From the IMG/VR virus record IMGVR_UViG_2706794664_000003: 14,378 bases of DNA; one strand, given 5' to 3'. The notes under the pieces are model-generated. The model was given only the letters and a program-made list of their open reading frames with translations, made no database searches and was not told where the DNA came from. The stretch is from a virus (lineage: Duplodnaviria; Heunggongvirae; Uroviricota; Caudoviricetes). Below, in pieces: positions 5,183 to 6,283 of this stretch (positions are counted from its first letter, which is position 1; each line of letters begins with the position of its first letter). A program made the position numbers and the translations under genes.

Positions 5183-5213
5183 ATCCCGCCCCCCGACAGA
5201 CCTGTGCTATCGG

Positions 5214-5248
5214 AAAGAAAAAAGGCCATCAGCAAAACTCTGATGGCC
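5214..5248 (-). terminator. intrinsic terminator candidate 30 nt upstream of the holin start
   Basis: 9-bp stem GGCCATCAG/CTGATGGCC (5224-5232 / 5240-5248) with 7-nt loop, followed on the minus strand by TTTTTTCTTTCC. Confidence 0.5.
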
Positions 5249-5862
5249 TGAATCACCTTTACCAATATTGTATGAAAAAACACGCACGACTAATTGACAA
5301 TAATTTTCATTTCCATTAAAAAAGATCGCGTAGCATTCTTAATTCATGAGGAACTTTACCCGCCAGCAATCTGAGTAGCGAAAGCTGTTCATCCCCAATG
5401 TTTTTGCTGGCGGGTCCTTTTTTCTACGGTCCTCCTCCCCGGAGGGGGGCATTTCATTATTTTTCTAATCGTTACTGGTGAGAAGGCGGAAGAAAAAGCC
5501 AGTTCTTCGCCCCTAAATAACAGCATGATTCCAGTCCATGCAAAATCTGATTTCCAGCTCACACATACCGAGCGCTGTACAAAAAACCGCCAGCCAAGGC
5601 AGTTAAGAGTGTGTTCCCGGGGTTTGCTTAGAATATTTTGTAAGTTGTCCGAAGAGATATTTACAACACCAGAATGATGAATCATCAGTCCCCTGCCAGA
5701 GGTTCACTACGTAACCTGACCGACAATGCACCATTCTGGTGCTGAAAAAAGAGCACTGGAACTGCAACAAAACAACATCACAGAACAGGAGATGGTAAGG
5801 AGTCAGACATTCCCACACAATATTGTGTCAGTGCAAATAACAACCTTCGTCTCAAATCTCGC

Positions 5863-5937
5863 TGGAGCGGGCAGCGGGAATCGAACCCGCATCATCAGCT
5901 TGGAAGGCTGAGGTAATAGCCATTATACGATGCCCGC
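5863..5937 (-). tRNA. tRNA-Gly (anticodon TCC)
   Basis: 75 nt; perfect 7-bp acceptor stem, anticodon stem TCAGC/GCTGA, loop CTTCCAA, T-loop TTCGATT, 3' CCA. Confidence 0.8.
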
Positions 5938-5940
5938 ATA

Positions 5941-6016
5941 TGGTGCCGACTACCGGAATCGAACTGGTGACCTACTGATTACAAGTCAGTTGCTCTGCCT
6001 GCTGAGCTAAGTCGGC
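5941..6016 (-). tRNA. tRNA-Thr (anticodon TGT)
   Basis: 76 nt; acceptor GCCGACT/AGTCGGC, anticodon stem ACTGA/TCAGT, loop CTTGTAA, T-loop TTCGATT, CCA; one A-C mismatch in the T stem. Confidence 0.65.
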
Positions 6017-6018
6017 GC

Positions 6019-6095
6019 TGGCCCACCACCGAGGACTCGAACCTCGCACCGTCAACTTAGAAGGTTGATGCTCTATCCGGATGAGCTAGTGGTGG
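6019..6095 (-). tRNA. tRNA-Arg (anticodon TCT)
   Basis: 77 nt; acceptor CCACCAC/GTGGTGG, anticodon stem TCAAC/GTTGA, loop CTTCTAA, T stem CGAGG/CCTCG, CCA. Confidence 0.8.
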
Positions 6096-6096
6096 T

Positions 6097-6173
6097 TGGT
6101 GGCCCTTGCTGGACTTGAACCAGCGACCTGGCGATTATGAGTCGCTCGCTCTGACCAACTGAGCTAAAGGGCC
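6097..6173 (-). tRNA. tRNA with CAT anticodon (Ile2-type or Met)
   Basis: 77 nt; acceptor GGCCCTT/AAGGGCC, anticodon loop CTCATAA, T stem GCTGG/CCAGC, CCA; resembles E. coli ileX-type tRNA as recalled; first anticodon-stem pair is A-C. Confidence 0.65.
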
Positions 6174-6261
6174 GGAGGCAGAATAATAACCATATGTCAT
6201 CACATCTGCAAACTCATCTGACCACCAGCACGTTTAACGTCCTGTGCCGTTTTTCAGGTAT

Positions 6262-6283
6262 AAAAAAACCCGCATAAAGCGGG
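6262..6283 (-). terminator. intrinsic terminator candidate between the Q-like gene and the tRNA cluster
   Basis: Hairpin CCCGC-loop-GCGGG (6269-6283) followed on the minus strand by seven T (6268-6262), about 80 nt after the Q-like stop. Confidence 0.55.

Follow-up and report, generated by a model that had tools for sequence, protein, structure and literature searches.

A tRNA operon with a conserved structured trailer between the Q-like antiterminator and holin genes of a Rac-like lambdoid prophage

The window, by which we mean the whole 14,378-nucleotide stretch of DNA that was analysed, derives from an E. coli/Shigella lambda-like prophage and carries four tRNA genes in the stretch that separates the late-gene switch from the lysis genes (Table 1). 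The Q-like gene, the tRNAs and the holin are all encoded on the minus strand. The Q-like gene is the last in the nin-region gene order DUF1367-DUF1364-DUF1133, and the holin gene is followed by genes for lysozyme (PF00959) and then Rz (PF03245).

Table 1. Features of the interval between the Q-like antiterminator and holin genes, in order of transcription of the minus strand.
Feature	Position	Strand	Evidence
Q-like late antiterminator gene (DUF1133 family)	6363-6917	-	Pfam DUF1133, 357 bits; Phage_antitermQ PF06530, 29.4 bits (cutoff 26)
Conserved 55-nt block immediately following the stop codon of the Q-like gene; may be a late promoter or a leader for Q utilisation	6303-6357	-	7-bp hairpin fold; near-identity of window and E. 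coli W
tR'-type intrinsic terminator, GCCCGC-UUUAU-GCGGGU then U7	6262-6284	-	fold z = -3.5
Sigma-70 promoter of the tRNA operon, TTGCAG-17 nt-TATTAT, G+C-rich discriminator	6183-6211	-	promoter scan
tRNA CAU, ileX/ileZ type (tRNA-Ile2), predicted to read AUA after lysidine modification	6097-6173	-	ARAGORN (Met/Ile2(cat)), Rfam
tRNA-Arg(UCU), reads AGA	6019-6095	-	ARAGORN, Rfam
tRNA-Thr(UGU), reads ACA	5941-6016	-	ARAGORN, Rfam
tRNA-Gly(UCC), reads GGA	5863-5937	-	ARAGORN, Rfam
Cloverleaf-like four-way junction: closing stem GCACUG/CAGUGC and three variable arms	5753-5834	-	alignment, folding
Long hairpin with imperfect pairing (28 + 6 bp), candidate site for processing of the RNase III type	5660-5748	-	fold z = -3.2; alignment of 30 sequences
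Short-form tail, candidate small RNA: single-stranded conserved stretch (UAAGCAAA.CC.GG.AA...CUUAAC) and intrinsic terminator	5579-5659	-	terminator scan; 13 short-form copies aligned
Holin-linked non-coding block (module b)	5183-5563	-	four-variant alignment; E. coli record matches
Candidate convergent small RNA gene	5294-5426	+	promoter hexamers and stem; four-variant alignment
Last intrinsic terminator, 30 nt upstream of the holin gene	5214-5249	-	scan: T-run after a 10-bp stem with 6 G-C pairs
Class II holin (phage 21 S family), lysis cassette gene 1	4967-5182	-	Pfam PF04971, 121 bits

For 25 years, prophages have been known to carry tRNA genes beside toxin genes. A first-pass annotation of the window had proposed four tRNAs with anticodons CAT, TCT, TGT and TCC in phage orientation; ARAGORN found exactly these four, all on the minus strand, and the Rfam tRNA model accepted them as well, at 56-70 bits (gathering score 29). 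The CAT gene is named tRNA-Ile by PGAP in matching E. coli records, whose spacers are 100% (CFSAN029787) and 99.1% (FDAARGOS_944) identical to that of the window, and it shares 88% identity with the annotated ileZ of Stx phages; it appears to be of the Ile2 (lysidine) type, not Met. The Ile2-Arg pair as a unit shows 88% identity to ileZ-argN of Stx2 phages. Two of the tRNAs had been said to read rare codons, which is right for AUA and AGA, and in fact all four read A-ending minor codons. In the genes of the window, AUA and AGA are frequent (9.1 and 7.8 per 1000, respectively) and are especially abundant in the lysis genes. By tRNA prediction, by location from Q to the lysis genes in late orientation and by its Ile2-type gene, the cluster belongs to the phage-borne tRNA clusters of lambdoid late operons.

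Directly behind the Q-like gene, the 55-nt block was far better kept than the 3' end of that gene in the same alignment of the window with E. coli W, and it may act as a late promoter or Q-utilisation leader. A search for the late promoter of the Q-like gene gave no convincing -35/-10 pair and delimited only this conserved block. The tRNA cluster had been described as flanked by two terminators, and both were recovered. The upstream one was missed by the consensus scan yet folds as predicted; its stem is maintained via compensatory changes in E. coli W, and UMNK88 has an analogous hairpin and T-run. An isrK-like match at 6263-6336, scoring 19.9 bits against a gathering score of 50, was treated as generic terminator resemblance. 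The downstream terminator was found by the scan (called at 5249-5223 including the T-run) and is kept in all four variants of module b that were compared. Across 4900-7100, we found 7 terminator-like sites versus 1.7 expected by chance.

The promoter of the tRNA operon lies 9 nt upstream of the 5' end of the first tRNA, and its TTGC and TTAT.AT are invariant in 6 loci with unrelated upstream flanks, including an Stx2a phage. Because a conserved sigma-70 promoter stands directly before the first tRNA, the tRNAs and the trailer that follows them probably form a Q-independent unit. With the terminator at 5604-5579, this unit has, at the sequence level, the own promoter and own terminator that characterize a moron.

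No conserved ORF was found in 5183-5862, which bears out the earlier statement that 5250-5860 is devoid of a convincing one. Were the spacer a small-protein gene or a degraded coding gene, its ORFs of 98 and 71 codons, the hypothetical protein called by PGAP over the trailer in some genomes and a conserved ATG with the start MHHSGVV would be accounted for. However, the six spacer ORFs had no match in Pfam or PHROGs, and the frame opened by the single conserved ATG varies from 16 to >88 codons across copies, with peptides that are unrelated past residue 7. Moreover, indels in the spacer are not multiples of three, and the apparent codon changes co-vary with the opposite arm of the hairpin. A degraded gene or small protein was therefore rejected, and we consider a coding spacer scarcely credible.

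The part of the spacer next to the tRNAs is instead a conserved structured 3' trailer of tRNA-Gly(UCC), which we call module a (5862-5579, ~280 nt). It consists, in this order, of a cloverleaf-like four-way junction, a ~34-bp hairpin, a ~80-nt tail and an intrinsic terminator; a U-run at 5745-5750 comes after the junction. The closing stem of the junction is invariant in 30 aligned copies except for one A-to-G change that retains the pair as G·U, and compensatory changes were seen in helices P2 and P3. The middle and third arms, in which MAFFT leaves groups out of register, were judged by independent folding against shuffled sequences in place of column-wise covariation: the three-arm fold was obtained for 22 of 26 distinct copies versus 178 of 2,600 shuffles (7%). 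The window's own copy is not unusually stable, as 42 of 100 shuffles fold equally well. The junction was not called as a tRNA by ARAGORN or Rfam, and only its four-way topology and 7-bp closing stem are tRNA-like; it was rejected as a tRNA.

Pairing in the long hairpin is maintained in 97-98% of the cells of the 30-sequence alignment; for the trailer structure the figure is 96.9%, versus 31-53% in slid controls. Ten pairs in the trailer showed compensatory changes, a count that overstates the independent events since the aligned sequences make up only four or five related groups; the observed values were reached in 0 of 500 shuffles. About eight hairpin positions are G·U pairs in most copies, and because such pairs fit this strand only, they mark the sense strand as the RNA strand. 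Sequence conservation in the 3' arm of the hairpin exceeds what pairing alone would require, which suggests that this arm is under a further constraint. In the tail, the terminator stem (5604-5585) is followed by a U-run; this U6-U8 terminator and the conserved single-stranded stretch could suit an Hfq-dependent small RNA.

Among the full-length matches of an nhmmer search, 114 of 121 had the trailer 12-25 nt after tRNA-Gly(UCC). It occurs in about 230 E. coli genomes (~233) at ~70% identity, beside unrelated lysis cassettes and always co-oriented with the tRNAs, and at least 5% of complete E. coli genomes carry it. PGAP leaves it blank or assigns it a spurious ORF, and no Rfam family covers it. 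Phage SerU-LTIIb has the same tRNA-Gly trailer twice; LT-II toxin was rejected as a cargo of the slot, the toxin genes of this phage being located after the lysis genes. A pattern scan of genome contigs with an 18-mer (15 specified bases) returned almost only chance matches in unrelated phyla, the sole useful locus being from Shigella flexneri.

Some relatives, such as E. coli W, have a long form of the trailer, in which the same leader and hairpin are retained and the short tail is replaced by an STnc100-like cassette. The long form has the STnc100 core motif CGGGAGGCACCCG and a multi-stem layout in common with that family, and its cassette scored 24.4 bits (E = 0.004) with the Rfam STnc100 model (RF02076, gathering score 47), where true members scored 114-158 bits. 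The window copy gave no match to RF02076 at E ≤ 5. With similarity confined to the long-form relatives and below threshold there, its identification as STnc100 was rejected. The window form resembles the long form minus about 115 nt, and the short form has no match in Rfam, with STnc100 not reached even weakly, so that its tail may be what a deletion left behind.

Each of the two leader types occurs with each of the two cassette types, which implies recombination near the hairpin. This modularity, together with the sequence invariance of P1 and of the hairpin 3' arm, could mean that the conserved hairpin and the GCACTG/CAGTGC stem work as signals in the DNA and not as RNA structures, perhaps as hot spots of recombination for cassette exchange. 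However, the opposite strand, or a DNA cruciform, would have A·C mismatches at the G·U positions of the hairpin, and the trailer always has the same orientation as the tRNAs; we regard this explanation as very improbable.

The remaining ~380 nt of the spacer, module b, travel with the holin and include the last terminator. Module b is conserved in about 1,450 E. coli genomes and 84-87% identical in about 1,500 E. coli records, including ColV-type plasmids, and in IHE3034 it lies directly 3' of a bona fide STnc100. On its plus strand, TTGACA (5294-5299) and TAAAAA (5317-5322) are separated by 17 nt and would direct an RNA of about 5329-5424 with a terminal stem (5359-5369/5404-5414) and U6; a second hairpin (5429-5450) lies beyond it. 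The hexamers and the stem are invariant or nearly so in the module b variants (n = 4 only), the plus-strand fold has z = -4.4, and a plus-strand terminator-like site was found in the scan. Module b probably encodes a convergent small RNA on the plus strand.

The Stx2a phage F349 has the order Q, ileZ-argN-argO, stx2A-stx2B, STnc100, nanS-p, holin, in agreement with the first-pass annotation, which had placed the toxin genes of Stx phages in the equivalent slot. In the Stx2a phage, STnc100 lies 75 nt after stx2B; IHE3034 has a true STnc100 in the equivalent slot, followed by module b. Northern blots detect expression of STnc100 in EHEC (PMC5331693), and this RNA is related to the Hfq-bound PasD (Zhu/Storz 2026, doi 10.64898/2026.05.13.724894).

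The slot in the window had been thought to be empty or to hold only regulatory RNA. An empty or decayed cargo site, that is, a neutral remnant of earlier insertions with no function of its own, would fit the lack of any ORF or annotation at this position in matching records and the apparent loss of about 115 nt relative to the long form. It is contradicted by the conservation of sequence and secondary structure of the trailer (~70% identity, compensatory changes) across different prophage backgrounds and by the retention of module b in about 1,500 records. We therefore consider an empty slot very improbable and favour the other half of the statement, regulatory RNA only.

If the slot holds RNA, the RNA could still act exclusively in cis. 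The hairpins and terminators would then serve 3' maturation of the tRNAs, RNase III uncoupling of the tRNA transcript from the late mRNA and, as stacked terminators, the silencing of the holin in the lysogen, with no RNA acting in trans. The 680 nt do hold three sense-strand terminators and one long hairpin, the trailer is strictly attached to tRNA-Gly, the final terminator is conserved just ahead of the holin, and the window form is without an STnc100-like cassette. On the other hand, the tail of the short form keeps its own single-stranded sequence from hairpin to terminator in diverged lineages, which insulation alone does not need, and the equivalent position in relatives is taken by STnc100, an expressed RNA. 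A purely cis-acting spacer is in our judgement unlikely, although it deserves more weight than the other alternatives.

The reading to which we incline, with confidence somewhat above even, is that this Rac-like lambdoid prophage has a late-operon "moron" site between its Q-like antiterminator and its holin and that the site is filled with RNA genes only, comprising a self-contained tRNA operon, a structured trailer, a probable convergent small RNA and the release of a small RNA by processing. Its own tRNA-type sigma-70 promoter would drive transcription of the unit in the lysogen, where the three sense-strand terminators would prevent expression of the lysis genes. Once the prophage is induced, Q-modified polymerase would pass through the whole interval, and the tRNAs for AUA, AGA, ACA and GGA would then serve the AUA/AGA-rich phage genes, above all the lysis genes. 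Processing at the junction or the hairpin would free from the tRNA transcript a small regulatory RNA, probably of the Hfq type; since long-form relatives carry an STnc100-like cassette on the same leader and hairpin, release of such an RNA is the most likely role of the trailer. Module b would contribute the probable convergent small RNA, encoded on the plus strand, together with the last terminator.

More tentatively, the tRNA-Gly(UCC) trailer may represent a new RNA family, a tRNA-attached "launch platform" (junction and ~34-bp hairpin) that is expressed from a tRNA-type promoter and processed to free interchangeable small RNA cassettes, STnc100-like or of the short type found in the window, in lysogens. 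Through their tRNA operon, lambdoid prophages would then supply the host with regulatory RNAs independently of induction. We regard this proposal as possible but, on balance, doubtful. The window is a cargo-free version of the site, in which the tRNAs lead straight into a conserved, folded and unannotated RNA. If the trailer is expressed and processed, tRNA supply and small RNA delivery would be joined in one Q-independent unit, the production of STnc100-type RNAs in uninduced lysogens would be explained, and the junction and hairpin would provide a structural handle for finding more cassettes. Should the trailer prove to be no more than an insulator, it would be an ordinary finding.

STnc100, PasD, AsxR and AgvB, all at the late-operon site, rewire host regulation in pathogenic E. 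coli. Like STnc100 (RF02076) and its structural relative PasD, prophage small RNAs of EHEC, EPEC and Salmonella that are located in the late operon after the cargo and before the holin-linked block or nanS-p, the short-form tail lies in sense orientation at the corresponding position and ends in a terminator. In contrast, the one locus aligned, that of IHE3034, has neither the tRNA-linked junction nor the long hairpin upstream of its bona fide STnc100, and an nhmmer search for the trailer found no copy in IHE3034 or in the Stx2a phage. Comparison of the window with the PasA, PasC and PasD loci of E2348/69 (blastn, word size 7) gave only 13-14-nt chance matches, and membership in any of these three families was rejected.

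The tRNA cluster is like the ileZ-argN-argO cluster of Stx phages (933W type) in its orientation and its place after Q/tR', ahead of cargo and lysis genes; the first two tRNAs are homologous, and the promoter motif before the first tRNA is identical in kind. It differs in having Thr(UGU) and Gly(UCC), not a second Arg, as genes 3 and 4, in the absence of toxin genes after them, and in the structured trailer borne by its Gly tRNA, to which the one Stx2a locus searched with nhmmer had no match. The terminator directly behind the Q-like gene would, in the lysogen, keep constitutive transcription to a short RNA, in the manner of StxS, which is described as the short RNA that runs from pR' to tR' in Stx phages (Sy et al. 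2020, as cited in PMC8065619); at this site in the window, the RNA-family signal is limited to the sub-threshold isrK-like match.

The candidate on the plus strand resembles AsxR and AgvB, anti-sRNAs of 51-60 nt that are convergently encoded at the moron site (Tree et al. 2014, PMC4104026), in being a small gene opposite to the late operon and just 3' of a sense small RNA. Its RNA would be longer, about 95 nt, and the AgvB and AsxR models (RF02702, RF02703) had no match on either strand of the window at E ≤ 5. The proposed origin of the sense RNA has a parallel on the E. coli chromosome: 3'ETS-leuZ, which Lalaouna et al. are said to have described in 2015, is reportedly a small RNA sponge from a tRNA trailer. 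In both cases, the regulatory RNA would be the 3' trailer of a tRNA operon, end at the operon terminator and be freed by processing. 3'ETS-leuZ is about 50 nt long and unstructured upstream, whereas the trailer in the window has 280 nt with a four-way junction and a 34-bp hairpin. Small RNAs at the late-operon site are on record (Tree 2014, PMC4104026; Zhu/Storz 2026, doi 10.64898/2026.05.13.724894; PMC12370729). Neither the tRNA cluster nor the idea of a cargo site is new; the tRNA-linked trailer is a variant, not described before, of the small RNA modules known from prophages.

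The spacer between tRNA-Gly(UCC) and the holin gene (5183-5862), which the first-pass annotation regarded as empty or holding only regulatory RNA, is filled by conserved structured modules: a trailer after tRNA-Gly (module (a), 5862-5579) and a holin-linked block (module (b), 5563-5183). "Empty" is therefore not tenable, and "only regulatory RNA", a function that we infer, is the better option. The absence of a convincing ORF held up. None of the 6 spacer ORFs matched Pfam or PHROGs, and the PGAP annotation of the spacer is blank in matching records. The frame behind the one conserved ATG (start MHHSGVV) varies from 16 to >88 codons and encodes unrelated peptides in 70 distinct copies, spacer indels are not multiples of three, and the conserved "codons" show co-variation with the other arm of a hairpin. 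The lack of a family match, the unstable frame, the non-triplet indels and the hairpin co-variation rule out a protein-coding spacer. In some genomes, PGAP places "hypothetical proteins" over the trailer and the holin-linked block (comparison loci L008, 2492-2752, and L005, 3666-3857); such ORF calls are probably spurious.

The window represents a Rac-like lambdoid prophage, described here in minus-strand order. Replication genes, QueH, hok/sok (a type I toxin-antitoxin in the nin region), DUF1367, YbcO and a DUF1133 protein (6363-6917, minus strand; also matching Phage_antitermQ above the family cutoff) precede the RNA region, and beyond it lie a holin of the phage 21 type (4967-5182), lysozyme, Rz, terminase and portal protein. 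About two thirds of the window aligned at 99.3% identity with the closest complete genomes, E. coli FDAARGOS_943 and FDAARGOS_944. The prophage is a mosaic: its terminase and portal region (60-3772, minus strand) shares ~95% identity with Shigella phages SfII and SfIV, and its early region is Rac-like.

Coordinates of RNA genes and accessory genes in the window
Feature	Position	Strand	Basis or remarks
Candidate convergent small RNA gene	5294-5450	+	near-consensus promoter, two terminator-like hairpins; 4/4 module (b) variants
tRNA-Gly(tcc)	5863-5937	-	ARAGORN
tRNA-Thr(tgt)	5941-6016	-	ARAGORN
tRNA-Arg(tct)	6019-6095	-	ARAGORN
CAT tRNA	6097-6173	-	ARAGORN
Hok ORF	8379-8591	-	PF01848
sok RNA	8529-8704	-	Rfam, 117 bits
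QueH epoxyqueuosine reductase gene	8762-9448	-	PF02677, 221 bits

All four tRNA genes proposed earlier were recovered by ARAGORN in phage orientation, on the minus strand, and scored 56-70 bits with the Rfam tRNA model (gathering score 29). PGAP calls the CAT gene tRNA-Ile in E. coli records with a spacer 99-100% identical, and ileZ-argN of Stx2 phages is 88% identical to the CAT-Arg pair; on these comparisons the CAT tRNA is of the lysidine-dependent Ile2 type, as had been suggested. The tRNAs read AUA, AGA, ACA and GGA. Per 1000 codons, the 15 ORFs of the window use 9.1 AUA and 7.8 AGA, against E. coli averages of ~4-5 and ~2-3, so that a role in supplying tRNAs for phage codons is plausible but modest. 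The holin (71 codons) contains 2 AUA and 2 AGA, the lysozyme 4 AUA and Rz 4 AGA. The gene for QueH, a tRNA-modification enzyme, lies 2.6 kb upstream of the cluster.

Just upstream of the first tRNA there is a promoter motif (TTGCAG, 17 nt, TATTAT, then a G+C-rich discriminator) with its -10 element ending 9 nt upstream of the mature tRNA 5' end. It is kept in 6 loci with unrelated upstream flanks, among them a methyltransferase gene, various Q genes and an Stx2a phage. We infer that the tRNAs and the trailer may form a Q-independent transcription unit ending at 5604-5579. Scanning 4900-7100 revealed 7 terminator-like sites versus 1.7 expected. The hairpin-T7 terminator claimed at 6262-6283 was reproduced as a hairpin-U7 fold at 6262-6284 (minus strand), its stem preserved in E. 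coli W through compensatory changes, and the second one, before the holin, was detected at 5249-5223 plus T-run and is kept in 4/4 variants of module (b). Immediately 3' of the DUF1133 Q-like stop codon lies a 55-nt block (6303-6357, minus strand) that folds as a 7-bp hairpin. It is almost identical in E. coli W, whereas the 3' end of the Q-like gene diverges far more in that alignment; the block is a candidate for the late promoter or the Q-utilisation site of this uncharacterised Q family. From the Q-like stop to the tR'-type terminator (6263-6336, minus strand), Rfam gave a weak isrK-like signal (19.9 bits; gathering score 50), which probably reflects no more than a generic short terminated transcript.

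Of 5,426 complete E. coli genomes, 233 proved in a sensitive search to carry module (a) at ~70% identity, in every case on the chromosome; a pattern scan of IMG/VR added >100 loci. The copies lie behind tRNA-Thr-Gly clusters, yet adjoin quite different lysis cassettes. With an HMM made from 30 non-redundant copies, 121 full-length matches were obtained, 114 of which begin 12-25 nt after tRNA-Gly(UCC), the last gene of Thr-Gly, Ile2-Arg-Thr-Gly (as in the window), Ile2-Lys-Thr-Gly and other clusters. In an LT-IIb phage fragment (L004, KU052038), tRNA-Gly, trailer and holin start occur twice in tandem (1201-2456, 3107-4127), and the toxin genes follow the lysis genes, outside the Q-S slot.

For module (a), RNAalifold predicted small hairpins and a 28 + 6-bp hairpin besides a closing stem, GCACUG/CAGUGC, in which the only variation is one A-to-G change that retains pairing as G·U. 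In the predicted structure, 96.9% of cells are paired, with compensatory changes at 10 pairs; these values were reached by 0 of 500 shuffles, and sliding the partners lowered pairing to 31-53%. In most copies, G·U pairs occupy about 8 positions of the hairpin, which assigns the modelled structure to RNA of the tRNA strand and excludes DNA or the opposite strand. When each distinct copy was folded on its own, the 82-98 nt inside the invariant stem gave a cloverleaf-like junction with three arms in 22 of 26 cases versus 178 of 2,600 shuffled interiors (18 of 26 versus 15 of 2,600 under strict criteria), even though arm sequences differ between groups. The copies, however, belong to only 4 or 5 related groups, two arms were not aligned in register by MAFFT, and the junction of the window itself has no particular stability.

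In the short form (window type), the hairpin is followed by ~60 nt that include a conserved single-stranded stretch, reading UAAGCAAAACCUGGAAAUACAUCCUUAA in most copies, and then by a terminator with U6-U8. The long form (E. coli W, the LT-IIb phage and others) carries ~115 nt extra; out of 5,426 E. coli genomes, at least 312 possess it, nearly always without annotation. Its insert scored 24.4 bits against Rfam STnc100, below the threshold of 47 (E = 0.004 on the stretch searched), and shares with STnc100 the core CGGGAGGCACCCG and a multi-stem layout; the STnc100 model starts within the 3' arm of the long hairpin. Both types of leader were found with both types of cassette, which points to modular exchange.

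About 1,500 E. coli records, some of them ColV-type plasmids, contain module (b) at 84-87% identity. In a four-variant alignment, conservation is highest for features that read on the plus strand: a putative promoter (TTGACA, 17 nt, TAAAAA), then an 11-bp stem that encloses an internal hairpin and runs into U6, and finally a second hairpin (z = -4.4 for the plus-strand fold). The sense terminator, 30 nt before the holin, closes the block. ColV-type plasmids retain the block next to iss and Rz remnants, and do so even after deletion of the holin (L253 2501-2844, plasmid p2HS-C-2; ~640 other plasmid places).

Neither the tRNA cluster nor the cargo-site concept is new, and sRNA genes at the late-operon "moron" site have been published: convergent sRNAs after the cargo (Tree et al. 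2014, PMC4104026), PasA/PasC adjoining the holin, and PasD, structurally related to STnc100 (Zhu, Shabalina and Storz 2026, doi 10.64898/2026.05.13.724894). The conserved tRNA-Gly trailer carrying either an STnc100-like or a short cassette is new, unannotated and absent from Rfam 15. Here, the window showed no similarity to the PasA, PasC and PasD loci of E2348/69 and no Rfam match apart from tRNAs. In its predicted layout, the plus-strand candidate of module (b) resembles the convergent anti-sRNAs AsxR and AgvB, but it does not match them in sequence or by Rfam. The earlier comparison with Stx phages proved right. In Stx2a phage F349, a bona fide STnc100 (158 bits) lies 75 nt after stx2B, as reported in PMC12370729. 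In IHE3034, a bona fide STnc100 (114 bits) directly precedes the same holin-linked block. STnc100 thus occupies a place in the late operon equivalent to that of the module (a) cassette.
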